Shown here one piece after another: positions 23,028-44,335 of a stretch of 46,673 nt of DNA (position 1 is the stretch's first letter; each line of letters begins with the position of its first letter). The notes under the pieces were generated by a model. The model was not told the origin of the DNA and searched no databases. It worked only from the letters and a program-made list of their open reading frames with translations. This DNA comes from an uncultured virus (IMG/VR IMGVR_UViG_3300006120_000013) (Duplodnaviria; Heunggongvirae; Uroviricota; Caudoviricetes). Made by a program: the position numbers and the translations under genes. The stretch is taken from the IMG/VR virus record IMGVR_UViG_3300006120_000013. One strand, written 5' to 3'.

Positions 23028-26000
23028 ATGACAACAGCGGCAAAATATGGCGCACAAGACTTAAACGGTAATCCATTCAATTACCAACAGTTAGTTCCAC
23101 TACCAAGTACAAACCCAAGTACTACAAATACCGTAGTTAATACCAACATCACTAACAGAGCAGCATATGATGCCAGAGTTAGAGTTGCTTTAACTAATAC
23201 CCCAATTGGATCACAAGTTGTTTCAAACGTTCATGGATCGCAGTCATTTGTTGCACAACAGAGTGCAGCATCAACACTTGTTGAAACACAACAAGTTTTA
23301 ACAATTGATACTGCATCAGCAATTACTAATGCATTTTCAACAGCATCATATGTTGTTACAGCAACTACTGAAAATACAAACGTTATTACAGTATCAAGTA
23401 CTGCAACATTTACAGTTGGTCAACCAGTTGTATTCAGTGCTTCGGTTGGTAACTTAACAGCAGGTACAGTTTATTATATCCTAACTATTCCTAGTTCAAC
23501 AACATTTACTGTTTCTCCAATTTGGAACGGACCAGTTCAAATGTTAACTACTAGTACATTTCCTATGATTGTCCAACAAACTGTAACTAACCTGTCAGTT
23601 GGTATGCCAATTAACTTCCACGGTACTACATTTGGTTATGCTTTTTATAACATGAACTATTATGTTGCAAGTTTACCAGGTGGTTCAAATGGTACAACAT
23701 TTACTATTTCATTATTCCCAGGTGGTCCAACATTACCTTTAATTTCTGCAATTGGTACAATGTCCTGCGTTCCAGTAGTTACTCCAGTTGCTAACCCACA
23801 AACCGCTCAGTATCCAACTGCAATGACTTCAGCAATTGCACTTAATACAACTGCTCAGTCAGGCTACTATAATACTTTACAAGGTATTACTGTAATAGCA
23901 TCAACAGCATCAACTAACGTATTAACTACAGCATCATTTTCGATTACTGCATCAACTGCTGCTTCAGGTACATTAGGTTTTGGTTATTTAACAACTAGTG
24001 GTAACGCATACCTCTTAACAGCAGGACAACCAATTGTATTCAACGCAACAGTTACTGGTTCTGCTCTTTATGCTAACATTACATATTATGTTCACTCAGT
24101 ATTAAGTTCTACAACATTTACTGTTAGTACTTCTTATAACGGTAATCCATTCTCAATAGCAACTAATGCTAGTATCAGTGGTGTTACAATGTATCTAAGT
24201 ACAAACTACCTTCAGACTAACCAGCAGATAATTTTCACTGGTACTTCTTTTGGTAATATTACTCCAAATACTCCATACTATATTTCAACAGTTCCAAGTA
24301 ATAACACATTTACTGTTTCAACTTGGCCAGGTGGACCAGTATTTCCTTTAACAACTACCACAGGTACAATGGTTGCATCGGCGTTTGTTCCTCCAACAGT
24401 TCCACAACTTGTTTTTGGTAGTTCTCAAGCAGGTGTAACTCTAAACATTAGTGCTACAACTACTGGTACAAACTTAATTACTGCTACTAGTATAACTGGT
24501 TTAGTAGCAAACCAACCAATCGTATTCAGTGCTAGTATTGGTGGTCTTATTGCTAATACAACTTACTATGTTGTAAGTGGTTTTGGTGGAACTACATTCC
24601 AGGTAAGTGCAACACAAGGTGGTACTGCATTAAGTTTAACATCTGGTACAGGTACATTAACTGCCCAAGCATTACCATATTTTAACACTTTTTCAACAAC
24701 TGTTACAGCAACTACAGCAAGTACAAACTTAATTACTGTAACAAATACATCAAACTTTGTTCCAGGACAACCAGTTGTATTTGCTTCTGCTGTTGGTGGA
24801 CTTAGTGCTAATACTGTTTACTATGTATTAAACGTTTACAGTTTAACACAATTGGTTGTTTCAACAACACAAGGCGGTGTAGCATTCCCTCTAATCACTA
24901 CTACAGGTCAGTCTGTAGCAATGTCTCAAGCAACTACTGGTTTAGCAACAAACCAACCGTTGCAGTTTGCTACCGTAACAATTTCAGTTACAGCAACATC
25001 GTCAACTGGTAATTTAATTACTTGTAATAATACTGTAAATCTTGTAGCAAACCAGCCAATAGTATTCAGTGGAACAATTGGTACTATTACAGGTGGTACA
25101 GTTTACTATGTGTCAGCAGTTACAGGTGGTAGTACTACTACATTTACTATCAGCCAAACATCGGGTGGTGCTGTATACGGCATGTCCAATGCTTCAGGTT
25201 CCGTAACGGCTCAACAAGGTACATTCTCTGGATTAGTTCCAGGACAGGTATACTATGTATACAGTGTTCCTTCACTAACACAAGTTGTAGTTTCAAGCAT
25301 CCATGGTGCGCCAACTCCTCTTACATTAACTACTGTAGCAGCAGGTTCTATGCTTGCTACATTCCAGTCAGTTATTCCTACAATTACACTAGGAACATCA
25401 ACTGCAACTGGTACAGTTTATCCTTTAAACAACACTTATACAACTTCAACATATTCAATAAGCAGCACTACTACAACTAACGTTGTTATTGGTTCTGCAG
25501 TTCCACTTATGACAGGTCAGCCAGTTACATTCTTTATCGGTGGTTCACTTGCTAATTCGAACGGTATTGTTGCATTTGTATCAGTTACAGCAACTACATC
25601 AGGAACTAACGTAATTACATTAGCAAGTGCTACTGGTCTTTATGTTGGTCAAGCAATTGTGTTTGGTGCTAGTGGTGGTGGTATTATTACAGGTACAGTT
25701 TATTATATTACATCGATTTCAGGTGCAAATATTACTGTATCAACAACACCATATGGTACAAACCTTACACTAACAACTGCTACAGTATCATTTACTGGTG
25801 TTCCAACTTATTACATCACATATTATGATAACCCAACTAACTCTATACAGATATCTGCAACATACGGTGGTCCAATTGTTCCATTAACAGCAGGTATTCC
25901 AGGTAGTAGTACAGTACAACATGCAACTACTAACCTTCTTGCTGGGCAACCAATATATGTAACAGGTACAGCATTCGGTGGTACTACTACTAATACTACT

Positions 26001-29000
26001 TACTATGTAAGAACTATTCCATCTGCAACACAGTTTACAATTTCAACTTCACCATTTGGACAGATCTCTACATTAACAGCAACAACTGGTACAATGCCAA
26101 CATTAATTGGTCCAAGACCAGTAATAACAATTCAGTCAAGTGTTTCATCAAACCAGTTAGCAACACAGACTTATGCAGTTACAGCAACTACAGCTACAAC
26201 TAACTTAATTACTGTATCAAATACATTTGCTTTAACAGTAGGTATGCCAGTTGTATTCAGTGGTGCTTTAGGTAACTTAGTCAGTGGTATGATTTACTAT
26301 GTTGCAAGTATTCCAACAGCAACAGCATTTTCAGTTTCACCAACACTAGGTGGAAATACATTTGCTCTTGCTACAGCAACAGGTTCTGTAAACGTACAAC
26401 AGGCTACATCACTATTGTACATTAACCAAGAAATACAGTTCCAAGGATTTACTTATCCACTTAGTACAGCAACATCAACTGGTATTACATTTGGTACTAC
26501 ATATTTTATTAACAGTATTGTGTCTACTACAACCTTTACAATTTCAACAGCACAAAACGTTGCCGGTACATCTGCAACTACTGCTACTGTAACAGGTGGT
26601 AACATAATTCTTGCTAACCCAATTGTTAATAACATTGTTGACGTATTTGCTTACACAACAAATCCTGTTACTGTAACAGCTACATCAAGTACAAGTCCAA
26701 CATATTATCTAACTTGTGCTAATACAGTTAACTTAGCAGTTGGACAACCAATTATATTCACAGGTACTACATTATTAGGCGGTGTATCTGCAAATACAGT
26801 TTACTATGTAAACTCAATTGCAAGTACTACACAGTTTAATATTTCATCTACATATGGTGGTCCAGTTGTAGCATTAACAACAGGTAGTGGTACGATGTCA
26901 GTTCAACAAGCAACATCTGGTTACTCCGCTAACCAAACTGTTATATTGAACTCACCAACTGTAACTATTACTGGTACAAGTTCATCAGGTAACTTATTAA
27001 CTTGTAATACTACAAACAACTTAATAATTGGTCAGCCAATTGTATTCGGTAATATGGCACAAGGTACTGCTAGTATTGGTGGTGTTGTTGCTGGTACAAC
27101 TTACTATGTATTAAGTACACCAAGTACAACAACATTTACAGTATCAGCTACTCCAAGTGGATCTGCACTTACTTTAACTACTACTTCAACACAGTTTGCA
27201 GGACAGCAAGGTATATTCGGTCAGCAATATAATACTAATGGTCAGAACTGGGTAGTTCAAAGTACACCAAGTTTAACATCACTTATACTTTCAAGAGTAG
27301 GTTCAAGTGTTACACAGTCTGGTTTAGGACTATTTCCACTACCAGCAGTTGCACCACTTGTAGTAACTGCTACATCAGGATCTAGTCCATATTATATTAC
27401 AATATCAAGTACTGCATCACTTACAGTTGGACAACCTGTAATATTTGTTGGTACAACATTTGGTGGTTTAACTGCTTCAGTTAACAGTCTTATTAACCCA
27501 ACTGTTTACTATGTAAATGCAATTGCAAGTTCTACTACATTTAACGTTTACACTACAACTCCAGGTACTCCAGTTGTATTAACAGGTGCTAGTGGTAACT
27601 GTATTCTTGTTCCGTTAAGTGCAACAGGTATTGCTACTGCTTATTCATACAACGTAACACCAACTCTTGCTATTGGTGCTACAACAACAAGTACTAACAT
27701 TTTAACTACACAGGCTTACAGCGTTTCACTAGGTGCATCAGGTACAAACTTGATATCAATATCAACATCAGGTGGTACAACAGCATTTGTACTTGGACAA
27801 CCAATTACATTTGCTGCAAATACTGGTAGTATTACAGGTGGTATTACTTACTATATCTCTTCGATACAGTCAACTACCACATTTAGTATTTCACAGTTCT
27901 TTGGCGGACCAGACTTGATTATTACAGGTTCCGGTAGTACTACAATGAACCAAATAACATCATTCTTACAGATTAATCAACCAGTAACATTTACTGGTAC
28001 ATTATTAGGTGGTTTGACTGCTGCTTCTAACTATGCTGTAACATACTATGTAACTAACGTAGTAAGTAGTACAACATTTGTTGTCAGTACTCAGTCAGGT
28101 GGTGTAGGCACACAGTTATCACTCACAACAACAACTGCTACAGCACCAAGCTTTATGATGGCACAAGTTGGTTCTTATAGATCTCTTAGTTTTAACTCAA
28201 CTAACAACGGTACTTCAGTACTGCAAACTGAAAGTTTTTCTGTAACTGCTACTGCCGCAATTAACGGTGGTCAGATGCTTGTTACAGCAAGTAACACATT
28301 TGCAATGTATCCAGGTATGGCTCTATCGTTTACAGGTACATCGATCGGATTTTTATCAAATAACGTTCTTTACTATGTAGTATCTGTATATGACGAAAAA
28401 AGATTTATTATTTCTACTGCACCAGTTGGGTCAATTGGTATTGCAACAAACGGTACAACTGTTCTACAGACAGCAAACGGTGTTGCACTAACACAACAGA
28501 CTACAACAGGTACTATGTCAGCTGTACAAAGTTTAGCAAGATTACAACAGAACCAAGCAGTTGTATTTTATCCAACTATTGGTGGTGTAATGATTGCAGG
28601 CTTAACACAGGGTACAATTTACTATGTTAACCCTACATTTACTAATCCAATGAGTGGCACATTGTCAGTATCAACTACACCTGGCGGTTCGGCATTTACA
28701 TTCTCAGCAGTTAACAATACTGGTACTACGGCGGCTATGATAATGGTTCCACTATCAACATGGACTGTTGCGTCAAACGTAATGATCACACAGCCAATGC
28801 CAATTTATAGTGGTACAACATCATCAAACGTGTTCACTACTGGTAACTTAACTATTGTTACAAATACATCATACGGTACAAACTATATCACTTGCTATAG
28901 TACATCTGCACTAGCAGTTGGTATGCCAGTTGTATTTGGTTCGGCTATTGGTTCACTAGCATCTGCTACAACATACTATGTTGTTCAAATTATTAACGCA

Positions 29001-30527
29001 ACACAGTTTACAGTATCACAAACTTGGGGTGGTCAAGTTGCTATTCTAACACAAGGTACTGGTGCTGTTACACTTCAACCGTCGACAGCATTAATGACGG
29101 TAGGTCAACCAATGTTAGTTACAGGAACTGGATATATTTCATTTACTAGTAGCTATACCGTTGCATATAATCCAGCTTTTTATGTTGCTTCGATTCCAAG
29201 TTCTACAACATTTACATTAGCTTCATCGTTAGCTAATGCGTTAGCAGGCACATCACTTGCAATCTCAACCACAACATATGGTTATATGACTATGACTGGA
29301 TCAACTGCAAACTACTTAACAAATATGTCAAACGTAATTGGTCCATCACAACCAATTGCATTTACTGGAGCACAGATTAACGTAACTATTGTTAACGGAC
29401 AGAATCTATATACTCCAAATAGTACAATATTATTAAGTGCTAACCAAGCAGTAGTGTTCACAGGTTATGGTTATACTAGCCAAACAAGTGGTACTATACA
29501 GCCAGGTACAGTTTACTACATTAAGGCTATCTTAGATAATAATACATTTACTCTAAGTGCAACACCAGGTGGTACTGTAATAACTTGGGTAACTGAAACT
29601 AATACTTTAACAATGCAAATTGTAAGTAACTTAGGTTCATCATTAATACCTTACTCAACTTACTTTGTATTGGCAACACCAACTCCAAATACATTCCAGA
29701 TTTCAACATCTGCTGCAACTGCAAGTGGTTTAACATTAACAGTACCGTCCGCTGTAACACAAACAGCAGGTAATACTATAGTTAACGTTGCAAGTAACAT
29801 TGTTACACTTGCTCAAGCACAGGGTGCAACAAATACATTCTTTGTACCAAACACTCCTGTAACATTTACAGCATATAGTGGTACAACGTTTGGTGTAGGT
29901 GCAACAGCAGGTACAAGTACATTCAACGGTGCTCCAGTTCCAGGTACTCCGTTCATAGTAACAGCAGTTGCTACAAACGGTAACATTACATTGAACACAT
30001 CTGCAGCTAGTTTACTAGTAATAGGTCAACCGATAGTGTTTACAAACCCACTATCACCGATTACATCTTCAACTGGTGTATCACCATTCGTGACATATTA
30101 TGTTCTTAGCATTTCAACTACAACAATTACAGTTGCTTCAAGTTGGCCAAGCACTACAGCAGTAACATTCTCCGCTGCTTGGTCTTCACAGTCAACAGTT
30201 GGTGGTTTCTATGCTATACCACATTACTATGTTAAAGCAGTACTTGATAGCAGAAGAATTATGCTATCGGCTACACTAAATGGTTCAACTTGGCCAATTA
30301 CAAACGCATCTGGTACTGTTCCAGGTAACTATGCTACTGGTACAAACATTATGACAATCAACTCACTACCGTCATATACTGACTTTATTGAGCACGATGT
30401 TTCATTATCACCAAACGGTACATTTGAAAGAACAGGTATACTTGTTCCTCCAAATACTTACTTGTATGTTTCAAGTAATCAGCCACAGGTAACTGCGGTA
30501 GCAATAGGTATCCAAGAATCAGTATAA
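23028..30527 (+). CDS. Giant Thr/Ser-rich repeat protein (2499 aa, ~27 beta-rich modules), probable virion appendage
   Basis: SD AGGAG upstream; about 27 copies (counted by eye) of a TNLIT...L..GQPIVF...G.L.AGT.YYV...TTF.VS.T.GG unit; very few charged residues. Confidence 0.85.
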   Translation: MTTAAKYGAQDLNGNPFNYQQLVPLPSTNPSTTNTVVNTNITNRAAYDARVRVALTNTPIGSQVVSNVHGSQSFVAQQSAASTLVETQQVLTIDTASAITNAFSTASYVVTATTENTNVITVSSTATFTVGQPVVFSASVGNLTAGTVYYILTIPSSTTFTVSPIWNGPVQMLTTSTFPMIVQQTVTNLSVGMPINFHGTTFGYAFYNMNYYVASLPGGSNGTTFTISLFPGGPTLPLISAIGTMSCVPVVTPVANPQTAQYPTAMTSAIALNTTAQSGYYNTLQGITVIASTASTNVLTTASFSITASTAASGTLGFGYLTTSGNAYLLTAGQPIVFNATVTGSALYANITYYVHSVLSSTTFTVSTSYNGNPFSIATNASISGVTMYLSTNYLQTNQQIIFTGTSFGNITPNTPYYISTVPSNNTFTVSTWPGGPVFPLTTTTGTMVASAFVPPTVPQLVFGSSQAGVTLNISATTTGTNLITATSITGLVANQPIVFSASIGGLIANTTYYVVSGFGGTTFQVSATQGGTALSLTSGTGTLTAQALPYFNTFSTTVTATTASTNLITVTNTSNFVPGQPVVFASAVGGLSANTVYYVLNVYSLTQLVVSTTQGGVAFPLITTTGQSVAMSQATTGLATNQPLQFATVTISVTATSSTGNLITCNNTVNLVANQPIVFSGTIGTITGGTVYYVSAVTGGSTTTFTISQTSGGAVYGMSNASGSVTAQQGTFSGLVPGQVYYVYSVPSLTQVVVSSIHGAPTPLTLTTVAAGSMLATFQSVIPTITLGTSTATGTVYPLNNTYTTSTYSISSTTTTNVVIGSAVPLMTGQPVTFFIGGSLANSNGIVAFVSVTATTSGTNVITLASATGLYVGQAIVFGASGGGIITGTVYYITSISGANITVSTTPYGTNLTLTTATVSFTGVPTYYITYYDNPTNSIQISATYGGPIVPLTAGIPGSSTVQHATTNLLAGQPIYVTGTAFGGTTTNTTYYVRTIPSATQFTISTSPFGQISTLTATTGTMPTLIGPRPVITIQSSVSSNQLATQTYAVTATTATTNLITVSNTFALTVGMPVVFSGALGNLVSGMIYYVASIPTATAFSVSPTLGGNTFALATATGSVNVQQATSLLYINQEIQFQGFTYPLSTATSTGITFGTTYFINSIVSTTTFTISTAQNVAGTSATTATVTGGNIILANPIVNNIVDVFAYTTNPVTVTATSSTSPTYYLTCANTVNLAVGQPIIFTGTTLLGGVSANTVYYVNSIASTTQFNISSTYGGPVVALTTGSGTMSVQQATSGYSANQTVILNSPTVTITGTSSSGNLLTCNTTNNLIIGQPIVFGNMAQGTASIGGVVAGTTYYVLSTPSTTTFTVSATPSGSALTLTTTSTQFAGQQGIFGQQYNTNGQNWVVQSTPSLTSLILSRVGSSVTQSGLGLFPLPAVAPLVVTATSGSSPYYITISSTASLTVGQPVIFVGTTFGGLTASVNSLINPTVYYVNAIASSTTFNVYTTTPGTPVVLTGASGNCILVPLSATGIATAYSYNVTPTLAIGATTTSTNILTTQAYSVSLGASGTNLISISTSGGTTAFVLGQPITFAANTGSITGGITYYISSIQSTTTFSISQFFGGPDLIITGSGSTTMNQITSFLQINQPVTFTGTLLGGLTAASNYAVTYYVTNVVSSTTFVVSTQSGGVGTQLSLTTTTATAPSFMMAQVGSYRSLSFNSTNNGTSVLQTESFSVTATAAINGGQMLVTASNTFAMYPGMALSFTGTSIGFLSNNVLYYVVSVYDEKRFIISTAPVGSIGIATNGTTVLQTANGVALTQQTTTGTMSAVQSLARLQQNQAVVFYPTIGGVMIAGLTQGTIYYVNPTFTNPMSGTLSVSTTPGGSAFTFSAVNNTGTTAAMIMVPLSTWTVASNVMITQPMPIYSGTTSSNVFTTGNLTIVTNTSYGTNYITCYSTSALAVGMPVVFGSAIGSLASATTYYVVQIINATQFTVSQTWGGQVAILTQGTGAVTLQPSTALMTVGQPMLVTGTGYISFTSSYTVAYNPAFYVASIPSSTTFTLASSLANALAGTSLAISTTTYGYMTMTGSTANYLTNMSNVIGPSQPIAFTGAQINVTIVNGQNLYTPNSTILLSANQAVVFTGYGYTSQTSGTIQPGTVYYIKAILDNNTFTLSATPGGTVITWVTETNTLTMQIVSNLGSSLIPYSTYFVLATPTPNTFQISTSAATASGLTLTVPSAVTQTAGNTIVNVASNIVTLAQAQGATNTFFVPNTPVTFTAYSGTTFGVGATAGTSTFNGAPVPGTPFIVTAVATNGNITLNTSAASLLVIGQPIVFTNPLSPITSSTGVSPFVTYYVLSISTTTITVASSWPSTTAVTFSAAWSSQSTVGGFYAIPHYYVKAVLDSRRIMLSATLNGSTWPITNASGTVPGNYATGTNIMTINSLPSYTDFIEHDVSLSPNGTFERTGILVPPNTYLYVSSNQPQVTAVAIGIQESV

Positions 30528-30536
30528 TAATTTAGA

Positions 30537-30561
30537 TTGTGGGGGACTAGTTCCCCCACAA
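30537..30561 (+). terminator. Strong intergenic hairpin (terminator-like or stabilising)
   Basis: TTGTGGGGGA-CTAGT-TCCCCCACAA perfect 10-bp stem; no U-tract follows. Confidence 0.55.
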
Positions 30562-30583
30562 CATTAACATTATAGAGAAAAAG

Positions 30584-30991
30584 ATGAGAAAACAACCTAG
30601 AATTAGTTCAGCACCGATAATACAATTACCAGCAATACAACAAGGATATTATTATTATCCGTTAGGTGCACCAGGTAATGGTACATATGCTACTATTCCT
30701 ATTAATACTGTAGGAACATTGATTCAGATGACTAACGCTCCTACAGCAAATACTTGGTATTTAGATTTTACTGGTGTTTCACTATCAATTAACTTTGCAA
30801 TAACTATAACTGTTTTAATACCACAAGGTGGCACAGCATATAATCCAACAGTTTTAGTAAACGGTTATACAGTAACAGTAATTGGTAGTGGTGCTTCAGG
30901 AACAACAAGTAGAACTAATGCTTATTATTATACAATTTTATGCACAGGACCTAATCAGTACTCTGTATTTGGTTATGCTCAACCAGTTTAA
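30584..30991 (+). CDS. Small virion protein, short paralogue of 31013-31921
   Basis: Shares MRKQPRIS.APIIQ..AIQQG, WYLD.TG, TVLI.QGGT.YNPT..VNG and TSR..AYYY.I.CT.P.QYS. Confidence 0.75.
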   Translation: MRKQPRISSAPIIQLPAIQQGYYYYPLGAPGNGTYATIPINTVGTLIQMTNAPTANTWYLDFTGVSLSINFAITITVLIPQGGTAYNPTVLVNGYTVTVIGSGASGTTSRTNAYYYTILCTGPNQYSVFGYAQPV

Positions 30992-31012
30992 TAACTTATA
31001 AGATGGGTAAAA

Positions 31013-31921
31013 ATGAGAAAACAGCCTAGAATCAGTACAGCACCAATAATTCAACAACAAGCAATACAACAAGGAGTTTATTCTCTTAGTCCCGTTATAT
31101 CTACAACATCTATAAGTGTTACAAATACAACTGCAACTACTAACCTTATTACAACAGGAGCAGCAGTTTTAGGTTTCGTTAGAGAAGGACAAGCAATAAC
31201 ATTTGGTTCTGCTATCGGTGGATTGAGTACTAGTATCGTTTATTATGTAATACTTGGATCAATTACTTTAACTACTTTTCAAGTTAGTGCAACTCCAGGT
31301 GGGCCACCAGTTGTTTTATCAACAGCAGCCGCGGCGGTAACTGCTACAACTTATACATATATCAGTGTTCCTGTTAACAGTCTTGGAACTATTGTTAATT
31401 TAACAACTTCTGTTACAAGCCTTATAGGTCTTTTAGGAACAGTATTTGGTCAATCAACAACATTCGCAACTGTTACACTTACAAATGGTACAACTACAGG
31501 ACTAGTTATTGGACAGGCTATAACAGGAACCGGCGCCGGCGGCAGTTTAGGTAGTAATACTACTATTACAAGTATAACAAGTTCTACAACTTTTACTATA
31601 ACAACTAGTGGTGGTAATCCTGCAAACGGAGCAGTTACAAATATACAAACAACTACTCCTCAAATTATTAACGCTCCATCGACTTGGTATTTAGATATAA
31701 CAGGAATACCTAATTCTATTAACTATCAAACTACAGTAACGGTATTAATATCACAAGGTGGTACAGTATACAACCCAACATTAATAGTAAACGGAATCAC
31801 ACCTACTCTTATTGGAACAGGAAACGGTGGAGCAACTAGTAGAATTACGGCTTATTATTATTCGATTATTTGTACTGCTCCTGATCAATATTCATATTCT
31901 GTAATTACTTTTGCAGTTTAA
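31013..31921 (+). CDS. Virion protein, long paralogue of 30584 with two inserted modules
   Basis: Colinear with 30584 apart from insertions at ~31109-31351 and ~31406-31669. Confidence 0.75.
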   Translation: MRKQPRISTAPIIQQQAIQQGVYSLSPVISTTSISVTNTTATTNLITTGAAVLGFVREGQAITFGSAIGGLSTSIVYYVILGSITLTTFQVSATPGGPPVVLSTAAAAVTATTYTYISVPVNSLGTIVNLTTSVTSLIGLLGTVFGQSTTFATVTLTNGTTTGLVIGQAITGTGAGGSLGSNTTITSITSSTTFTITTSGGNPANGAVTNIQTTTPQIINAPSTWYLDITGIPNSINYQTTVTVLISQGGTVYNPTLIVNGITPTLIGTGNGGATSRITAYYYSIICTAPDQYSYSVITFAV

Positions 31922-31962
31922 TATTCTAAATAAATTACCATCGTTTCTTATTCTATTACCTC

Positions 31963-31970
31963 GATAAATA
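31963..31970 (+). promoter_or_regulatory. Late promoter GATAAATA
   Basis: Intergenic, before SD GAGGA and ATG 31988. Confidence 0.7.
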
Positions 31971-31987
31971 TACGTGAGGAATAATAC

Positions 31988-33985
31988 ATGAGCAGTCTTA
32001 ATCTAAACAACCTATTTTTGCAAGGTCCAAGAAATACTATTAAATTACAAAAGGACATATCCTTCAAAAATCCTTGGATTCAAATTTATTCAAATACTAC
32101 AATAGATACTTGGTATGTAGGTGACTTCTCAAGCGCATCATATTTTATTACAGTTGAATATGATTCAAATCACAAAGAATGTATGCATGTTCTAGTTATT
32201 GCTCGACCAGCACAAGCAACTTATTCAATATATGGTAGAACAAGTATTGATAATCAACTAGTTACATTATCTGCTACAGTTTCAAATAGTCAATTAACAC
32301 TATCTGCTACAGCAAATACAGGATATTCTGGAGCAAAATTAAGTTTCTCTGTTTCTTATAATGAAACAATGCAACCCCTATCATATCCTACCACAGTAAC
32401 AAATCTTCCTCCTGGATCAATACCTGTACCCCCAACTAACACAGTTCCTACAACTTTTGGACAAATTGCAGTTTCTGGGCAGTCAACAGTTTATGCAACT
32501 TCTTCGAGTGACACTCTTGCTTTTGTCGCTGGAACAGGAATTAGTCTTACAACTAATAGTACTTCGAAATCTGTAACAATTACTTCATCATTTCCATTCT
32601 TTCAAAATATTCAAGTTTCAGGACAACCAACTTTAATTCCTGCAACTGCTAGTAGTAGCTTAACTTATTCATCAAGCAACGGTATCTCTCTTACAACAAA
32701 TGCATCAAGTAATACAGTTAATATCGGATTAGGAACATTACCTACACTTTCAGTTTCAGGATCATCAACTTTTACTGGAGCAATTACTGCATCTAGTTTG
32801 ATTACAGCAAATACTGGAATCTTAGTTAATAATGGATTAACTGTTAACAATGGCGCAACGTTTAATAACGGAACGACAGTTAATACTTCATTAGCAGTGA
32901 ACGGAACTACATTATCAACTGGAACAATAACTTCTAATTCAAATATAACTTCTACAATAGACGTATCAGGACTTAATAATTATGGAGCCTTTAATTATGG
33001 AAACATAAGATATACTGATGTGAATATATTAGCAAGTTTCACGTCATCTCCTAATAGTTACAATCAAATTATTATAGAAAATAATTCTTCAGGAACATCT
33101 GCAACTGCTAATCTTATTGTAAGCAATAATCAAGGAACTGCTACTACAAACTATGGTAATTTGGGCATTAACAGTAGCGGATGGACTGGAACTTTAGGAA
33201 CATCTAGCATTAATGCACCGGGAGTTGTTTATCTTGCATCTGCTTCTAGCGATTTAGTTATAGGAACATTTGTATCAAATAATATTCGATTTGTTACAAA
33301 TAGTGGAGCAGATGCTGTAACAATTGATACATCAAATACATTAAATGCTTTACAAGGATTTAAATCATTTAGTACTACTACACTAAGTCCTGCAAGTGCT
33401 AATGTTATTATAAGTCCAACAGGTACTGGTAATGTTACTATAAGTCCATCGGGAACTGGAACAGTTGCTATCAATCCAACTTCAGTAGGTACAATTGACA
33501 ATATGACTTTTGGTTCAATTGTTCCTAGAGGCGGCACTTTCACTACTGTTTCTTTTACAGATAGTATAACAGTAACAAACAATGTTAATACATCAAATGT
33601 TTATGCAACCGGATTAAGTGATTTAAACAGAACATCTGAAACAGTTTTTGATGTAGCAAGTGGTGCTACAGTTTCATACAACTTCCAATCTGGATCAATT
33701 TTTTATCATACATCTAATCCTGGACAAGACTGGACGGCATCATTCCTTAATTTACCTACTACTAGTGGTAGAGCTATTTCGATGACTATTGTTGTTCCTC
33801 AAGGATCAACTGCTTATAAAATAACTGGATGTACTATCGAAGGACTTGCTGCTACAATTAAATGGGCAGGAGGATTTACTACTCCTATAGGTAATGCTAA
33901 TAAAACAGATATATGGGCATTTACTCTTATAAGAAGAAGCGGTGGTTGGACAGTTCTTGGATCACAAAATCCAGGATTTGCATAA
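31988..33985 (+). CDS. Fibre protein (665 aa)
   Basis: FGQIAVSGQS...DTL.FVAGTGISLTT repeats, beta-rich shaft, and C-terminal VVPQGSTAY...KWAGG..P.GNANKTDIWAFTL domain resembling the C-terminus of 30584/31013. Confidence 0.75.
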   Translation: MSSLNLNNLFLQGPRNTIKLQKDISFKNPWIQIYSNTTIDTWYVGDFSSASYFITVEYDSNHKECMHVLVIARPAQATYSIYGRTSIDNQLVTLSATVSNSQLTLSATANTGYSGAKLSFSVSYNETMQPLSYPTTVTNLPPGSIPVPPTNTVPTTFGQIAVSGQSTVYATSSSDTLAFVAGTGISLTTNSTSKSVTITSSFPFFQNIQVSGQPTLIPATASSSLTYSSSNGISLTTNASSNTVNIGLGTLPTLSVSGSSTFTGAITASSLITANTGILVNNGLTVNNGATFNNGTTVNTSLAVNGTTLSTGTITSNSNITSTIDVSGLNNYGAFNYGNIRYTDVNILASFTSSPNSYNQIIIENNSSGTSATANLIVSNNQGTATTNYGNLGINSSGWTGTLGTSSINAPGVVYLASASSDLVIGTFVSNNIRFVTNSGADAVTIDTSNTLNALQGFKSFSTTTLSPASANVIISPTGTGNVTISPSGTGTVAINPTSVGTIDNMTFGSIVPRGGTFTTVSFTDSITVTNNVNTSNVYATGLSDLNRTSETVFDVASGATVSYNFQSGSIFYHTSNPGQDWTASFLNLPTTSGRAISMTIVVPQGSTAYKITGCTIEGLAATIKWAGGFTTPIGNANKTDIWAFTLIRRSGGWTVLGSQNPGFA

Positions 33986-33998
33986 TGGGTATTATAAC

Positions 33999-34613
33999 AT
34001 GACATTATTATCATCAATGAGAGGCGTAAATCAATTAGGTATTTCTAAAAAACCGTATGTTCTATACGATATTATAACTCTTAATGCTATTAGTGGAAAT
34101 ATGACTGTTACAGGAAACGGAACTAATACTATAAGTGCATTTAAAACAAGTGGAGCAAACAACTGGGATAATCAAATAAATTCAAACACTCCGTATACTG
34201 CTCCTTGTACAATAGAGTTTACTAAACAAGCAGGTGTTACTGATAATTCACTTTCTTATGCTATGATGGGATGGAATACTGATCCAAATACTGATGCAAA
34301 TTATGGAACTCTAGATTATACTTCATATGCTTATGTACAGACTTCTTATATAGTATATAATAACGGAATTAGTAATAACGTTAGCACAGGTTGGGATCCC
34401 ACAAAGAGGTTTTATATTTCCTATGATCTTAGCGGAAATATCAAACACTGGAATGGGTCAACATTACTTTATAGCGCATCATATGGAACAGGAAATACTG
34501 TATATCTTGATAGTAGTTTTTATAGTGTTGACGCTACACAAACATATAGTGGATTTAGTAATATCCGTATTACTAAGGCTGTTTGGAATGGGGATGCTTA
34601 TATATATGCTTGA
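33999..34613 (+). CDS. Small beta-sandwich (lectin-like) tip protein
   Basis: ATG 33999 avoids overlap with the upstream gene; W/Y/N-rich beta pattern. Function inferred. Confidence 0.55.
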   Translation: MTLLSSMRGVNQLGISKKPYVLYDIITLNAISGNMTVTGNGTNTISAFKTSGANNWDNQINSNTPYTAPCTIEFTKQAGVTDNSLSYAMMGWNTDPNTDANYGTLDYTSYAYVQTSYIVYNNGISNNVSTGWDPTKRFYISYDLSGNIKHWNGSTLLYSASYGTGNTVYLDSSFYSVDATQTYSGFSNIRITKAVWNGDAYIYA

Positions 34614-34619
34614 GTAAAG

Positions 34620-34627
34620 CATAAATA
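34620..34627 (+). promoter_or_regulatory. Late promoter CATAAATA
   Basis: Intergenic, before SD GAGGA and ATG 34649. Confidence 0.6.
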
Positions 34628-34648
34628 TAACACTAACCAGAGGAAATC

Positions 34649-35563
34649 ATGTCAGTTAACCAGTTACCACTAAAATCCGAGTATGGATTCATTTCTCCAG
34701 GATTTTCTGTTGATACAAACGGAAACGTTAATATTACAGGACAATTTCAAGTTAACGGTGCTGCAATTACAGCATCAACAACAACTTTACCAAGCAACAT
34801 TGTTTTTAGCAGTCTAACACAAACAGGAACATTAACTGCATTAACTGTAAATGGTACAGTATCTACAAGTGGAGGAACTGTAACTCTTAATGCAAGAACT
34901 CAATTAACATTAACATCAACTGGATCAATAACCTTAACTTCTGGAACTAGCGGTATGGTTAATATTACTTCTGGAACTGGAGGTACAGTAGTAATTAATT
35001 CAAATGCAGCAGGAACTATGGACAATATTGCTATTGGTTCCACTACACCACAAACTGCTACGTTTACAAATGTTACTATTAGTGGAACTTTAACAGATAA
35101 TTCTAGTATTCCTTATTTAAAATCTGTTGCTGCTACTACAGGTACACTAGATAATTATAATATTGGATCAATAACTCCAAAAGCAGGAACATTTACTTCT
35201 TTAACTGTAACATCAAACTTATCTTTATCACCAACATCGGTGGGAACAATTAATAATACAAATATAGGTACCGTAACTGCTGGTACTGGTAATTTTAGTA
35301 CTTTAGCAGCAACTGGTCTTCTTACCTTATCGAATACATCGGCTACACATATAATTAGTTCTACAACTATATCAACTACAATTACCACTGGTGCATTAGT
35401 AATTTCTGGAGGGGTGGGTATCGGTGATTCACTAAATATAGCAAATAATTTAACAATTAATGGAATAGGAATTCAAGCAACTTTACCAACATCTGCAACA
35501 CATCTTGTTAATAAAAAGTATGTTGATGCAAAATCAATAGCAGTATCGATTGCACTGTCTTAA
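34649..35563 (+). CDS. Short fibre protein
   Basis: SSLT.TGTLT.LTV, three GT.DN..IG..TP..GTFT repeats, GALVISGGVGI and NKKYVD motifs; ends SIAVSIALS. Confidence 0.75.
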   Translation: MSVNQLPLKSEYGFISPGFSVDTNGNVNITGQFQVNGAAITASTTTLPSNIVFSSLTQTGTLTALTVNGTVSTSGGTVTLNARTQLTLTSTGSITLTSGTSGMVNITSGTGGTVVINSNAAGTMDNIAIGSTTPQTATFTNVTISGTLTDNSSIPYLKSVAATTGTLDNYNIGSITPKAGTFTSLTVTSNLSLSPTSVGTINNTNIGTVTAGTGNFSTLAATGLLTLSNTSATHIISSTTISTTITTGALVISGGVGIGDSLNIANNLTINGIGIQATLPTSATHLVNKKYVDAKSIAVSIALS

Positions 35564-35575
35564 AAGGAATTAATA

Positions 35576-38500
35576 ATGGCAAAACGACTAATAAGAACAT
35601 ATGTTTTTACACCAGGAGCAGCAGGAGTAGGAAATATACAAATTCCTGGAAGATGGGATTTGAGTCAATTTCTATTAGTTACTAATACTGTAAGAAATCA
35701 AATACTTTATAATTTTGCTGATTCTACAACTGGTGCAACAGTTACATTTACTGCTGGAACTAACACAAACTTTCCTTATATAACACAAGACAGTGATGGA
35801 TATACTACTTTAACTTTTACTAATTTTAATACTTCTTCATATTCTAGTACAGAAAATTTACAAATTTTTGTCGATCAAGAATCACAAACAATTCGCCCTT
35901 GGCCATTTGGTACAGATGCTATCGAACGTATGCGTGTTGCAAGTCCACAATCAATGCTCGATGCTGACTTTGAATACGGTCTACAACCAACTAAATGGCT
36001 AACAGTTAGCCAATTAAGAGGATATCCATCAACTTATGAAATTCCTGGATCAGATTTAACAGTAACAAACGTAACAACTGATGCTTCTGTTCCTTTTAGT
36101 GGTCTTGGTTCATCATTAATTACAGTTACAACTTCAACTGCACACGGTTATTCAGCATTGACTCCAATTAATATTAAAGGTCTTTTAAATACTGTTCCTG
36201 GATTCAACCGCGCAGAAGGTTCTTTCCTAGTTTATACAGTTCCTTCAAGTACAACTTTTACATATTATTCTAAATCTAAAGTTGGAAATAACAATGGTGA
36301 TACTCTTTATAGTGGTATCGTTCAATTAAGAAGAGAAGCATTTTATACAGGAGCAAGTGTCGGTAGTGCAGGACCGACTGCAACATATGTAAATGGTACA
36401 GGATTAAATGGTGCAGCATTAATTACATTAAGTTTAGCAAATCCTCATGGATTTATTCCAGGAGATACTATACTCGTTACTGTGAGTTCAGATAACGGAA
36501 CAAATAACCACACATTGGCACAAGGCGGATTTTGGATAGAACAAATAAACAGTCCAACTACACTATCATTTAGTGCTAGAGGCATAGGAACAATTACAGG
36601 AACAATTATAGTTTCGGCTTTATATGCAAGACCCGATTGTTATTACATTCATAGACCTCTAGACGGAGGTGTTGCTTTAGGAACAGGTGGACCTGCTCAT
36701 GGCGCACATGCTATACGTCAAAGTAAAAAATATATCCGTTATCAATCAGGTAAAGGAATTATGTATAATACTGGTGCTTTATTTGCACCTAATTATGACA
36801 TTAGATCCGTTACAGCTTCAGGCACAGCGATCGGCAGTACAATAACTGTAGTCACTGATAACTTAGATCACGGTTTACAAGTAGGTGCTTCGGTAAGTCT
36901 ATCACAAATAGTAACTAGCGGATACAATGGACAATATACTGTTCAAAGCATAGTTGATGAAAGAACATTTACTGTTACCGCGTATCAAGTTTTAGGATCA
37001 GTTTCTCCAATATTGCAAAATCCTTGTTTAGTTAATACTACAGGATGGCATGGATCAACAGTTCGTGCAGGAACATTTGATGATCAAAATGGTATGTTTT
37101 GGATGTTTGATGGAATATCAATGTATGTTGGAAGAAGAGCAGCAACATATCAAATTGCAGGAACTATTGCTGTAAACCCAGATTCAAATAGTATTGTAGG
37201 ATCTAGTACTAGATTCCAAGATCAATTAAAAGTGGGTGATCGTATAGTAATCAAAGGAATGACACATATTGTTACAAATATTGCATCTCAAACACAGTTA
37301 TATATAACTCCAGACTATCGTGGTATAAATTCTTATACTGGAGTTATTGCAGCAGGAGTTAGAGATATTATAGTTCCTCAATCACAATGGAACGTTGATC
37401 GTTGCGATGGTAGTGCAGGTCCGTTTAATCCAAGTGGTTATAATCTAACACCATATAAAATGCAGATGATTGGAATGCAATGGTCATGGTATGGCGCTGG
37501 ATTTATTGAATTCTTCTTAAGAGGTCCAGAATCTAGATTTATTTTAGTTCATAGAATGAAACAAAGTAACGTTAATAATGAAGCATATATGAGATCAGGT
37601 AACCAACCTGTTCGATATGAAGTTATTAATGAAGGTGGAAGAAGTACTCTAGTTAATGCTATAGGGTCTACTGATACAACATTAACAATTCAGTCATCAG
37701 ATGCTTATAGATTTCCACCAAGTGGTACTTTGTATATCGATTATGAATTAATTTCTTATACTTCTATTAATACATCTACTGGCGTAATAAGCGGATTAGG
37801 TCGAGCAGCAACTTTAAGTAATTTTTCTGGTGGTCAAACAAGAAACTATACTGCCAGTACGGCTAGTTCTCATGCAGCAGGTGTAGGAGTTACCTTAGTA
37901 AGTATAACTGCTACACCTCAAATAAGTCACTGGGGATCTGCATTTATGACAGACGGTGGTTTTGATAGTGATCGTGGATACATATTTAATTACCAACAGA
38001 CTAATGTTACAGCAAATCCTATTAGAGCGGCAGCATTTGGCATTCGATTAGCACCTAGTGTATCAAACGGACAGGTTGGAGATTTAGGAGATAGAGAATT
38101 AATTAACAGAGCCCAGTTGTTACTTCAAACAATTGAAATTACTGCCGGTACTGCTGGTACTAACTCTGCATTTATTATTGAAGGTGTTATTAATCCTCAG
38201 AATTACAGTTCTGCAACTTGGTATTCTCTTGCTCCTTCCACTAATGTTCTCAGTACTCCAGGTGGACAACCAAGTTTTACTCAGGTTGCAACAGGAACTA
38301 GTTTTGTTTGGAACAACAGTTTAAATACTAGTTACGCTGCTGCTGTAACAACAAGTACTGGTAATACAGTTACTATAAGTTCAGCAAATGCAGCAACTTT
38401 ACAAGCATTTCAGACATCTAATCCAACAACACTTATCTATCTATATAATTCAACTTCAAGTGGTGCAATCTCGTCAAATACATATATTACCAATATTAAT

Positions 38501-39234: not shown

Positions 39235-40589
39235 AACATCAGACGCCATAGTCCGTTTCTGTATTCTCCCTCGAAACTCTTGGTCCATGCTTCTCCGTCC
39301 CATTTATACTGTATACTAGTTCTTAAATTAGTTATATAGGTAATGTCTGTAGTAGATGCAGCATTGAATACTATATTCCATTTTGATCCATCCCATTCGA
39401 TAATATTATTAGCATCACTAATGAAATCACTATTATCTCTATTTTTCCAAGCATCTGCTCCATCAGAATTTATAGTTGATCCTATTGATTCTAATAATAG
39501 ATATCTAATACCGGGAGCAATATTAGTTGGAGGAGCATAAGTTAGAGGATCTATAATAGCATCAACTGTTCCTCTGTTTTGTATAATTGTATTTGTAGGA
39601 TATGTATCTGGATCCCAATTAATTATAGCAAGGGATTCGTCTGTAGGATGAATACTCATTGCACCTACAATTTCTGTACCATCTGCTTTTTTAAGAAACA
39701 TTCTACTTGTACCTGCACGAAATTTTCCATATTCGTCGAGTAATTTGTACCAATTTACATTTGTTCCATATTTTTGAGGTATTTCTTCATTACTAATACT
39801 CTCTCCTGGATTTAATAATCTTGCTGTATTGTTAATAACTAGCAATCCAAAAAAACCTGGTGTAATATATTGAGTTGAATCTGGTTGTCCAAGTAAAAAA
39901 TAAGGATCAATTTCGCCTGCTGGTTCTGTAAAAATATTAGCAACAATAGTTTGTATAACTCCCAATCTTTTAACCTTTGCTGGAGGAGTTATCCATATAG
40001 GTGTTTCAAATTCCATAGTTGCAATATCTATCTCACTATCGACACCGACTGGTACAGTTTTACTTGTTAAAACTAAATCAGTTAATTCAACTGTTGTAAG
40101 ACTAGTCCAATCAACATAGTTGTCTGTAGTTTGTATTTCAAAACTAGGATTAAAGAATACTAAAATTTGTTCTAATATTTGTAATTTTTGATCAGTATTT
40201 GATGCCCAGATATCTGCCTTAATTGTTAATTTATAAGGAGTAGGCATTAATCTTTCAATTGTATAATTTATTCCTTGTTCTGTATCATATTTTCCTGTTT
40301 GTGAGTTTATTTGTCTTTCTCTAACATTAAATTTACTAACAAAACTTGAATCACTTAGACGATCTCTATCAAATACTAGATCTGTCATATAAACAGCAAT
40401 ACGAGGAGTTGAGAGCAACTTGTTTTCAGATCCATCTTTTAAAATGCTTCCAACTTGTCTAGTCATATCTCCATAAATTACAGGAACAACTTTTTCAACA
40501 CCGTCAGCCGTTTTAATTTTAAAGTCACTTAACATTCTAATTATTTGAGAAAGATATCGGCGTACTTGGCCGTCATAGAACCATTGAAT
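39231..40589 (-). CDS. Tail sheath stabiliser/terminator, T4 gp15-like, with C-terminal extension; probable ATT start
   Basis: VPVIYGD, P.PYKL.I..DIW...TDQ.LQILEQIL..FNPS motifs. Frame extends 18 codons upstream of ATG 40535 to ATT 40589 (IQWFYDGQVRRY...), which has an SD AAGGAG. Confidence 0.8.
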   Translation of the reverse strand: MQWFYDGQVRRYLSQIIRMLSDFKIKTADGVEKVVPVIYGDMTRQVGSILKDGSENKLLSTPRIAVYMTDLVFDRDRLSDSSFVSKFNVRERQINSQTGKYDTEQGINYTIERLMPTPYKLTIKADIWASNTDQKLQILEQILVFFNPSFEIQTTDNYVDWTSLTTVELTDLVLTSKTVPVGVDSEIDIATMEFETPIWITPPAKVKRLGVIQTIVANIFTEPAGEIDPYFLLGQPDSTQYITPGFFGLLVINNTARLLNPGESISNEEIPQKYGTNVNWYKLLDEYGKFRAGTSRMFLKKADGTEIVGAMSIHPTDESLAIINWDPDTYPTNTIIQNRGTVDAIIDPLTYAPPTNIAPGIRYLLLESIGSTINSDGADAWKNRDNSDFISDANNIIEWDGSKWNIVFNAASTTDITYITNLRTSIQYKWDGEAWTKSFEGEYRNGLWRLML

Positions 40590-41115
40590 TGTCGTTCTCC
40601 TTTATAAACCAAACACGTTTACCGTTTATTAACTTCCAACTCATAGACCCTTTATTTTTCCATTTCGTACTTTCTTTACCCCGTTTGTTACTTATCCATA
40701 AACCTGTTTTACCTTTATGACTTCTTGGACTAGAATGTTTTTCTACACCATTATTCTCTTCTCGGCGTCTGGCATGAGCAGCCTTTTGTGCTTCTCTCAT
40801 ACGTTGTTTGCTTTCTTCAGAATGTATTTTATTATTTCCAGGTTGTCTAATGTTATAACCATTATTGATAGAATCAAATTTCTCTACATAAAATTCTTCT
40901 AACAAATTTAATTCTTCTAACGAGTTTGCTGTATCTATAACTTCAAATAAAAAAGAATCTAATCCATATTTCCTTAAAGCATTATGAAAATGATATTCTC
41001 TAGAAGAACGTTTAGAATGATTAATGTGCTCAAGACGACGCTGATTAGGATCTTGTATTGTTTGTCCTATATAACACTTTCCTGATTCTATATGAGTAAA
41101 TTTATAAATATGCAT
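40573..41115 (-). mobile_element. Free-standing GIY-YIG homing endonuclease (seg-like) with NUMOD3-like motif
   Basis: HIYKFT...GKCYIGQT...R..EH...E...NGYN and HSEESKQRMREA motifs; lies between the gp14-like and gp15-like genes, overlapping both. Confidence 0.88.
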
Positions 41116-43267: not shown

Positions 43268-44335
43268 ATGATGTTAAAACTTAAAATAGCTATCTATACT
43301 ATTTGTAAAAACGAATCACAACATGTTGAACGGTGGGCTGCTTCCAATCAAGACGCAGATTTAAGAATAGTCTGCGATACAGGTTCAACAGACAATACTG
43401 TAGAATTATTAAAATCTAAAGGTGTTACTGTTTATGATATAACAGTAAACCCTTGGCGATTTGATGTTGCTAGAAATACATCATTAAATCTAGTTCCAGA
43501 AGACATTGATGTTTGTATATGGCAAGACTTAGATGAGGCTTTATTAGAAGGCTGGAGAAAACAAATAGAAGATAATTGGACTGAGGATACAACTATAGCA
43601 AATCATCGTTATAGAAATAACGATAATCCTTGGCAGTGGCATAGCAAAATACATGCTAGACATAATTGTTGGTGGACTGGTGCTGTACATGAAACACTCA
43701 AATGGTCTGTACCTGAAAAAGCAATTTGGCTCGATGAATTCTACTTAGATGAAAAACAAGACGTTACAAAGAATAGAAGTTATCTTAATTTATTACTAAA
43801 GAAAATTAGTGAAGATGATCAGAATTGGCGTACATATGCCTTCCTTGCTGGTGAATATGAATCAACAGGAAACATGAAAGAATGTGTTAAAACACGCTTA
43901 ATTAGTTATGAAAAATGCGACGATGGACCTGTTGTTAAATCATATATTGCTAAAATCATTGCTAAAAATTATGTCGCAATGGAAGATTATACCTCAGCAG
44001 AAAAATGGTTTCAAATTAGTGTAACTGATAGCAACGAAAGAGAATCTTGGTTTAATTATGCAGATTATTGGCATAATAGAGAAGATTGGGAACAATGTTA
44101 TATTGCTGCTAAGAAATGTTTATCAGTAGAAATAAAGAGAGATGGATTTACGCAAGATCCTAAAGCGTGGGGAGCATTACCTTATGACTATGCTGCTCTT
44201 TCTGCTTATCATATTGGTTTCACTAAACAAGCAGTTGAGTATGGCGAAGAGGCATTAAAATTAATGCCAGATGATACTAGATTAATACATAACTTAAAAT
44301 TCTATAAGGAAAAATTAAATGATCAATCCTCCTAA
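43268..44335 (+). CDS. GT2 glycosyltransferase with C-terminal TPR repeats
   Basis: I.KNE, CDTGSTDNT, F..ARN.SL, DLDE and W.GAVHE motifs, followed by helical repeats. Confidence 0.88.
   Translation: MMLKLKIAIYTICKNESQHVERWAASNQDADLRIVCDTGSTDNTVELLKSKGVTVYDITVNPWRFDVARNTSLNLVPEDIDVCIWQDLDEALLEGWRKQIEDNWTEDTTIANHRYRNNDNPWQWHSKIHARHNCWWTGAVHETLKWSVPEKAIWLDEFYLDEKQDVTKNRSYLNLLLKKISEDDQNWRTYAFLAGEYESTGNMKECVKTRLISYEKCDDGPVVKSYIAKIIAKNYVAMEDYTSAEKWFQISVTDSNERESWFNYADYWHNREDWEQCYIAAKKCLSVEIKRDGFTQDPKAWGALPYDYAALSAYHIGFTKQAVEYGEEALKLMPDDTRLIHNLKFYKEKLNDQSS

Follow-up and report, generated by a model that had tools for sequence, protein, structure and literature searches.

The DNA of the uncultured caudoviricete virus IMGVR_UViG_3300006120_000013 (46,673 nucleotides [nt], referred to below as the window; 46.7 kb, about 33% G+C) carries two adjacent plus-strand genes, a short gene (30584-30991) for a protein of 135 amino acids (aa) and a long gene (31013-31921) for a protein of 302 aa. 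The two genes are colinear tandem paralogues. On the reading that we consider likely, they are old paralogues that both end in the same knob domain, and the long one gained two accessory domains, here called module 1 and module 2, in two in-frame events. The difference between the 135-aa and 302-aa proteins is made up of two events at two sites, involving two different domain families.

Colinearity had been proposed from the letters of the DNA, and it was borne out by BLASTP. Residues 1 to 23 of both proteins align with 19 of 23 positions identical (83%), and residues 28 to 127 of the short form align with residues 201 to 294 of the long form with 56 of 100 positions identical (E value 9e-31), which leaves approximately 170 extra residues in the middle of the long protein. 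The short form consists of an N-terminal peptide of 23 residues that is conserved across the family (30584-30652), a linker of about 10 residues, and the knob domain (aa ~34-135; 30683-30988), modeled as an eight-strand beta-sandwich. The long form begins with the same peptide (aa 1-23; 31013-31081), identified by BLASTP and by the family alignment, and continues with module 1 (aa ~24-113; 31082-31351), a member of a repeat family of about 75 residues that occupies the linker between peptide and knob. The first two strands of the knob follow (aa 114-132; 31352-31408); they align with residues ~34 to 52 of the short form and with the start of a C-terminal domain found in many other phage proteins (see below). 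Module 2 (aa ~133-222; 31409-31678) is nested between knob strands 2 and 3, and the rest of the knob (aa 223-302; 31679-31918) is 56% identical to the short form. At this level of identity between the paralogues, the module boundaries are accurate to about +/-4 residues, and nothing in the long form clearly corresponds to the linker of the short form. The original prediction had expected the pair to give direct insertion boundaries; the sites could indeed be placed by alignment, with boundaries that are approximate to this extent.

The 302-aa protein matched no Pfam (E ≤ 0.01) or PHROG family, and the long forms together gave no Pfam match at E < 0.1. With the 135-aa protein as the query, HMMER returned only 14 proteins at E ≤ 1e-3 from an exhaustive search of 1.84 billion representatives, and two further database searches added P0015 (306 aa), P0016 (223 aa), P0136 to P0141, and others. 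P0015 is 56% identical to the long protein over 100% of the P0015 length. Orthologues of the short form, of 135 or 136 residues, are found in L003 and L005 and as P0001 and P0137 to P0139. In the family alignment, the full-length members share the 23-aa N-terminal peptide, a short linker, two short strands, and the rest of the C-terminal domain. Compared with the 135-aa form, the alignment shows two points of insertion: site A in the linker and site B after the second strand. Site A is filled solely in the 302-aa protein of the window and in P0015, with module 1 replacing the linker of about 9 to 10 residues. Site B is filled with module 2 in the 217-, 223-, 302-, and 306-aa forms, and P0140 (208 aa) harbors a different or degenerate insert at this site.

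The position of these sites was examined on an AlphaFold2 (AF2) model of the 135-aa protein made with an alignment of 26 rows (A7), which had a mean predicted local distance difference test score (pLDDT) of 76 and a predicted template-modeling score (pTM) of 0.66. Residues 37 to 134 form an eight-strand beta-sandwich with strands at 37-41, 47-49, 59-63, 72-81, 89-92, 95-97, 110-122, and 125-134. Residues 1 to 32 are unstructured in the model; the pLDDT block means for residues 1 to 30 are 57, 51, and 42, and values fall below 50 at residues 19 to 32. Site A maps to this latter segment, and site B maps to the loop at residues 50 to 58 between the strands at 47-49 and 59-63. Site A therefore lies in a predicted disordered linker and site B in a predicted loop.

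The knob itself is widespread. A search of viral contigs identified 120 relatives, and among the 30 loci inspected, which are part of the best 80 of the 120, the knob stands at the C terminus of the open reading frame (ORF) in every case, in ORFs of 150 to 1164 codons. Proteins P0010 to P0014 (162 to 1176 aa) also end in the knob, and P0011 contains collagen repeats. In structure comparison with BFVD, 66 matches were obtained at E ≤ 1e-3 (TMq up to 0.63), those listed including proteins named tail fibre, fiber, and collagen triple helix repeat. The knob is thus found at the extreme C terminus of fiber-like virion proteins of varied length and has a fold in common with annotated fiber proteins. 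Neither the knob nor module 2 corresponds to a Pfam family; a profile search of the PDB with the knob gave nothing meaningful (best E value, 0.37), and its structure matches in the PDB were below the level that permits a claim of fold identity. In fiber-like proteins, the first two strands of the generic knob domain are those found ahead of module 2 in the long forms, and module 2 is therefore nested inside the knob. The same knob domain (alignment A7) is present at the C terminus of the 665-aa fiber-like protein encoded by the next gene (33638-33982, plus strand). The L003 orthologue of this protein retains the N-terminal 254 residues (60% identical) and ends in a Peptidase_S74 chaperone domain. 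The regions 31988-33985 of the window and 9168-10718 of L003 differ by a swap of the distal part, the knob versus the Peptidase_S74 intramolecular chaperone domain, and this is a classic distal fiber exchange.

A full copy of a repeated module had been predicted in the long gene at about 31109 to 31351. A profile (A2) built from 14 repeat copies matches the long protein at 31112-31336 (E value, 3.6e-23), and alignment delimits the block at 31082-31351. The same family makes up most of the product of the upstream gene (23028-30527, plus strand), a protein of 2499 residues with 25 A2 matches, 23 of which have E values below 1e-3. No Pfam (E ≤ 0.01) or PHROG family describes this array protein as a whole. 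It has orthologues of 2487 and 2489 residues and one of 1278 residues (P0029, 13 profile matches), an approximately twofold range of length. Full-length units in the array of the window alternate with units missing about 15 positions at the start of the profile. Two further matches (E values, 2.6e-28 and 5e-26) lie in the tail fiber protein of the window, to which we return below. Among the candidates scored, 159 proteins matched the profile at E ≤ 1e-3, including two bacterial flagellins, and several of the matching proteins are encoded on contigs of about 300 to 360 kb.

These relatives indicate that module 1 is probably a distant FCCH-type barrel. With Pfam family PF16190 (E1_FCCH; gathering score, 29.5 bits), scores above the cutoff were obtained for P0046 (30.0 bits), P0091 (41.9 bits), and P0126 (33.9 bits). 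In both flagellins, the PF16190 match overlaps the module-1 match (750-797 versus 755-808 in P0091 and 759-806 versus 764-817 in P0126); in P0046, the PF16190 stretch (1328-1393) falls between module-1 matches, so overlap is seen in two of the three relatives checked. In the ESM Atlas model of the 302-aa protein (pTM, 0.52), residues 30 to 112 align to parts of phage proteins with template-modeling (TM) scores of 0.78 to 0.89, the structure neighbors being phage proteins without a named family over the aligned part. Among feature neighbors in the Atlas, a cluster named E1 FCCH had a score of 0.91 and 151 shared features, where true family matches typically share 170. The assignment has to be set against two results: none of the 14 module copies of the window matches PF16190 at E ≤ 5, and a single-sequence AF2 model of the 302-aa protein had a pLDDT of only 31.5. 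A profile search of the PDB with module 1 gave nothing meaningful (best E value, 0.28), and matches to PHROGs were weak (phrog_5838 for 5 of the 14 copies, best E value 0.0013, and phrog_9370 for 4).

As the proteins concerned are very rich in Thr, Ser, and Gly, the likeness between module copies might reflect low complexity rather than discrete domains. In line with this possibility, a tblastn search of 50,697 GenBank phage records with the 302-aa and 2499-aa proteins, carried out with the low-complexity filter on, found no match, and MAFFT spread the module copies over module 1, module 2, and the knob. Compositional likeness would hardly account for profile E values of 1e-23 to 1e-30 over full-length matches of consistent length, or for the clean gaps of 77 and 82 residues in orthologues of the tail fiber protein that coincide exactly with profile matches. 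The structural alignment of residues 30 to 112 and the overlap of E1_FCCH matches with homologous copies in flagellins also speak for discrete domains. We therefore regard an artefact of composition as extremely improbable.

The second module had been predicted at about 31406 to 31669 and described as related to the first. An extra block is indeed present (31409-31678). There is little to tie it to module 1, whose profile matches module 2 only at E values of 0.0037 to 0.0086, and the relatives of module 2 itself share nothing else with the long protein. A profile built from five module-2 sequences matches module 2 of the long protein at an E value of 9.5e-31 and nothing else in the window. Of 114 newly listed proteins, 108 share module 2 alone with the family of the 302-aa protein (e.g., E value 4e-28). 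Most of these host proteins are SU10-adaptor-like and have 329 or about 400 residues; P0153 carries PF24175 (SU10 adaptor), P0142 and P0147 match phrog_2941, and the module is also present in the 453-aa fiber-like protein P0238. P0147 has 115 relatives in viral contigs, and most of the longer contigs listed are about 33 to 37 kb. Between the 217-aa relatives and the adaptor-like proteins, module 2 reaches 67% identity over 83 residues and, at the DNA level, about 70% over 221 nt. The copy in the window is more diverged, with 39% identity to P0238 and no match by blastn. Judged by these profile matches, module 2 is a second accessory domain that is unrelated or at most distantly related to module 1, and one that appears in unrelated virion genes of unrelated phages (jumbo phages versus phages of about 35 kb).

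P0142 (329 aa) and P0147 (401 aa) differ by an insert of about 72 residues, rich in Thr, Ser, and Gly, near residue 85, and constitute a further empty/filled pair in a different phage group. When viral contigs were searched for the P0015 locus, the only match was of module-2 size, on the IMG/VR contig L103 (60.8 kb), covering residues 167 to 208 of P0015, that is, the module-2 region; this hints at another host gene. The corresponding search with P0004 found no locus.

The short gene had originally been taken as the empty site into which a module was inserted in the long gene. This does not hold. The gene order of the window is found in L003/L004 and in L005, with an array protein of 2487 or 2489 residues followed by a 135-aa gene, a 217-aa gene, and the fiber gene, and the short gene is an old paralogue present in several lineages. 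The 217-aa frames of L003/L004 and L005 gave no match to the module-1 profile; P0016 (223 aa) also lacks module 1, and P0015 (306 aa) has it. The comparison of presence and absence in related genomes that had been suggested as a check could thus be made, and the real empty comparators of the 302-aa gene are its orthologues of 217 to 223 residues, which have module 2 and lack module 1. The longest contig is 8174 bp for both P0015 and P0139 (136 aa) and 1107 bp for both P0016 and the fragment P0002, which suggests that the tandem pair is also present in the phages encoding P0015/P0139 and P0016/P0002. The pair is present in at least three phage lineages for which DNA is available and probably in five in all. 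It is conserved across lineages, and the duplication is therefore older than the module-1 event and than the phages compared. These phages had both the duplication and module 2 before they diverged, and module 1 alone varies among the orthologues.

The direction of the module-1 change was addressed with a maximum-likelihood tree of 10 members, based on shared columns after removal of the module-1 columns (about 226 aligned columns). The 302-aa protein and P0015 group together (support, 87.6/89), P0016 joins them (89.4/86), the 217-aa pair is sister to these three, and the 135-aa forms stand apart. In a tree of 15 members, the grouping of the 302-aa protein with P0015 had support of 95.4/95. 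An approximately unbiased (AU) test marginally rejected the grouping of P0015 with the 217-aa forms (P = 0.042 and 0.043). The module-1 clade is therefore nested among forms without module 1, namely, P0016, the 217-aa forms, P0140, and the 135-aa forms. The tree of the short paralogues is congruent with weak support, with the window protein and P0139 together (56.6/64) and P0002 next (75.1/76). From this pattern, module 1 quite likely represents one old gain that preceded the split between the window phage and the phage encoding P0015, an insertion being favored because it requires fewer events than two or more losses.

The reverse history, in which a long form with both modules is ancestral and the 217-, 223-, and 135-aa forms arose by precise in-frame loss, would remove the evidence for insertion. 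A phylogeny of that kind had been named in the original prediction as what would refute it; the tree obtained leans toward gain with moderate support, few taxa, and short alignments. With the bearers of module 1 confined to one nested clade, deletion would have to occur at least twice, independently and precisely, among the long forms. The 135-aa form would require two separate deletions because the retained knob strands part the two modules. The generic knob is in addition found in more than 100 other phage proteins without either module.

The tail fiber gene just upstream of the array gene (18117-22994, plus strand; 1625 aa) provides a caution in this respect. The fiber protein of the window is 162 residues longer than its orthologue in G004, and the alignment shows exactly two gaps in G004 and G005, each corresponding to a module copy with cleanly aligning flanks. 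Copy 1 (fiber aa 412-488; 19350-19580) corresponds to a gap of 77 residues and copy 2 (fiber aa 715-796; 20259-20504) to one of 82 residues in the G004 and G005 orthologues. Copy 1 is 66% identical to the copy at residues 471 to 544 of the array protein, and copy 2 is 58% identical to copy 1. G004 and G005 lack both copies, and six distant homologues have modules, so loss in the G004/G005 lineage is as parsimonious as gain, and the polarity of the fiber gene fits deletion equally well. Copy number also varies in the array, with 13 matches in the 1278-aa orthologue versus 25 in the 2499-aa protein. Some distant fiber homologues contain what appear to be double or nested module units.

A number of observations accordingly count against a simple history of gain. 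All six of the distant fiber homologues examined (25 to 35% identical) have module matches in the same region of the protein, and two of them are filled, as judged by eye, where G004 and G005 are empty (P0041 at the first loop and P0042 at the second). Module loss may therefore also occur and may be the commoner direction in the fiber. In the trees of the paralogue family, the position of P0016 was weak with 15 members (12.3/43), only about 226 columns were available, and the AU test gave P values of only 0.04. The C-terminal stretch of the 302-aa protein is, by eye, closer to the 135-aa forms of other phages than to its own neighbor, and gene conversion within the tandem pair could bias the tree. 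The tandem arrangement of P0015 and P0016 with their partners is a suggestion drawn from matching contig sizes alone. Gain and loss of modules have evidently both taken place at a small number of permissive loops. For the long gene of the window, we nevertheless regard wholesale deletion as unlikely and retain gain of the two modules by the long paralogue as the favored history.

The original prediction went on to propose that the module moves between genes in frame. An additional in-frame copy of the repeat of a neighboring gene is certainly present in the long gene, and gain is the more parsimonious direction; the copies are old, and no mobility function is linked to them. Flanking codons at the junctions are conserved between filled and empty forms. 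The nucleotide alignment that had been proposed as a way of detecting micro-homology or duplication at the junctions revealed no duplication, no string of more than 7 nt being common to both junction zones. With flanks only about 50% identical to the empty forms, any micro-homology that accompanied the event would no longer be visible. We found no donor copy, junction repeat, or mobility machinery. Module 1 of the long protein shares 69% identity with the P0015 copy and no more than 50% in protein sequence with any other of 433 near-full-length copies in 126 proteins; at the DNA level, its best match to the other copies of the window is 76% over 67 nt. The module events are old.

These results bear on the possibility that the modules form an actively mobile cassette, spread recently or still by dedicated machinery such as gene conversion stimulated by a homing endonuclease or a retroelement. 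Three module-1 copies outside the array, in two other genes of the phage, would fit such a cassette, as would the occurrence of module 2 with up to 67% amino acid identity in unrelated host proteins of unrelated phages. Some 9 kb downstream is an ORF with a GIY-YIG domain (40573-41115), and farther on, at 46198, an Mtd_N-type ORF begins. The GIY-YIG ORF is the nearest candidate, and no nuclease or reverse transcriptase adjoins the pair. No recent copy is apparent, the best amino acid identities to nonorthologous copies being 50% for the module of the 302-aa protein and 66% for the fiber copy, and DNA likeness reaches only 76% over 67 nt in the window and about 70% over 221 nt for module 2. The modules are thus accompanied neither by a mobility gene of their own nor by junction repeats, and near-identical copies at different sites are not seen. 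The IMG/VR contig L001 is identical to the window at 24584-37918, and the nearest record, G001 (33.5 kb), is identical over the stretches compared, so these two overlapping records contain no population variant of the pair. A mobile cassette is therefore very improbable.

Returning to the history of two old in-frame gains, the following sequence of events can be proposed. The two genes would be old tandem paralogues for small virion-associated proteins, each with a probably unstructured N-terminal peptide of 23 residues that may serve in docking, a flexible linker, and a beta-sandwich knob of about 100 residues. The insertion of module 2 into the loop that joins knob strands 2 and 3 would have come first, ahead of the split among the known long forms; that of module 1 into the disordered linker would have followed in an ancestor shared by the window phage and the phage encoding P0015. 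Both could be products of recombination, illegitimate or guided by short homology, among the structural genes of one phage or of co-infecting phages, with selection keeping only in-frame products in which a self-folding domain is placed at a permissive linker or loop. The likely effect would be that the knob is lengthened or presented differently and acquires additional binding surface, which may diversify the adsorption apparatus.

The surrounding genes are in line with a role in the virion. The window encodes, all on the plus strand, a T4-type portal protein (1166-2872; PF07230, E value 1.5e-110), a prohead protease (4736-5362), a Gp23-type major capsid protein (6475-7650; E value, 2.2e-98), two baseplate-wedge-like proteins, the tail fiber protein with four CBM5/12 repeats, and further fiber-like proteins. 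The capsid protein is 70 to 73% identical to capsid proteins of jumbo myoviruses of 349 to 469 kb (Sinorhizobium phage Phosso, Vibrio phage 2.275.O, and the group of Serratia phage BF and Erwinia phages), and the metagenome contig L006 (352,510 bp) encodes the product of the short gene with 100% protein identity over its 135 residues. The T4-type structural genes, the capsid identity, and the L006 match together identify the window as the virion-structure region of an uncultured T4-like jumbo phage.

Several other features of the region were recorded. Between the stop codon of the 2499-aa gene and the short paralogue is a G+C-rich inverted repeat (30540-30558; 7-bp arms and a 3-base loop) that lacks a trailing T run and that the terminator scan did not report. 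The promoter and terminator scan of 30300-32200 returned 5 promoter-like sites versus 8.6 expected and no terminators, and TATAAATA was counted 3 times versus 9.35 expected. The GIY-YIG ORF is free-standing, on the minus strand (E value, 2.2e-5), possibly a homing endonuclease gene, and flanked by genes for a gp15-like tail sheath stabilizer and an unannotated 508-aa protein. Mtd_N is the N-terminal domain of the major tropism determinant of Bordetella phage. The ORF at 46198-46671, which runs off the end of the window, encodes this domain at its N terminus (E value, 1.3e-16), and no reverse transcriptase was seen in the window. Two neighboring ORFs at 43268-45419, adjoining structural genes, encode a family 2 glycosyltransferase domain and TPR repeats. 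In related phages, large RCC1-repeat proteins are encoded just downstream of the fiber genes (10721-11929 in L003 and 12618-16082 in L004; E value of 1e-183 for 18 repeats), and in the window this position is taken by ORFs of 223, 304, and 1074 codons.

The proteins described here form a natural series of knob alone, knob with one nested domain, and knob with two domains, and together with the orthologues this series indicates where a fiber-tip domain tolerates insertion of whole domains. Permissive sites and self-folding modules may offer insight into how host recognition is diversified and possibly a guide for the engineering of fibers. Three unannotated and widespread domain families of phages, those of the knob, module 2, and the module-1 barrel, are open to curation. 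In a narrow literature search, with subscription journals mostly outside it, we found no description of the module-1 family in jumbo-phage fibers or of module 2, and a search on FCCH domains together with flagellin returned no relevant paper. A bolder view would regard the 135/217/302 series, the fiber loops, and the SU10-adaptor-like proteins as products of one continuing in-frame exchange of plug-in barrels among freshwater phages, from podophage-type genomes of about 35 kb to jumbo genomes of 350 kb, through a limited set of permissive loops. On this view, what is transferred horizontally would be the module, a unit of less than a whole gene, and the 23-aa peptide would be a tag for docking onto the giant array protein. 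We consider this view quite improbable.

Our results place the locus among cases of accessory-domain accretion on phage virion proteins, a phenomenon that is already known and that calls for no new mechanism; the new members are the unannotated knob, the unannotated nested domain, and the FCCH-like barrel. Ig-like domains are reportedly promiscuous accessory domains on phage structural proteins. FCCH domains are outward-facing additions on siphophage tail-tube proteins (PMC13576161). Like these Ig-like and FCCH accessory domains, the modules are small self-folding beta domains that occur in frame in unrelated virion proteins, are patchily distributed among close relatives, are shared across unrelated phages, and, by analogy, would face outward. 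They differ from the Ig-like and FCCH cases in that their hosts are a tiny fiber-knob protein, a tail fiber, and the giant array protein of a jumbo myovirus, and in that one domain is nested in a loop of the knob and not appended at an end. In comparison with E1 FCCH (PF16190), relatives of module 1 exceed the Pfam cutoff and the flagellin matches overlap those of the module-1 profile, whereas the copies of the window itself stay below the threshold and have no link to ubiquitin activation. The knob resembles the C-terminal domains of phage tail fibers in being a beta-sandwich of about 100 residues at the extreme C terminus, sometimes after collagen-like repeats, as in P0011. Unlike those domains, it stands here nearly alone, behind a peptide of 23 residues.

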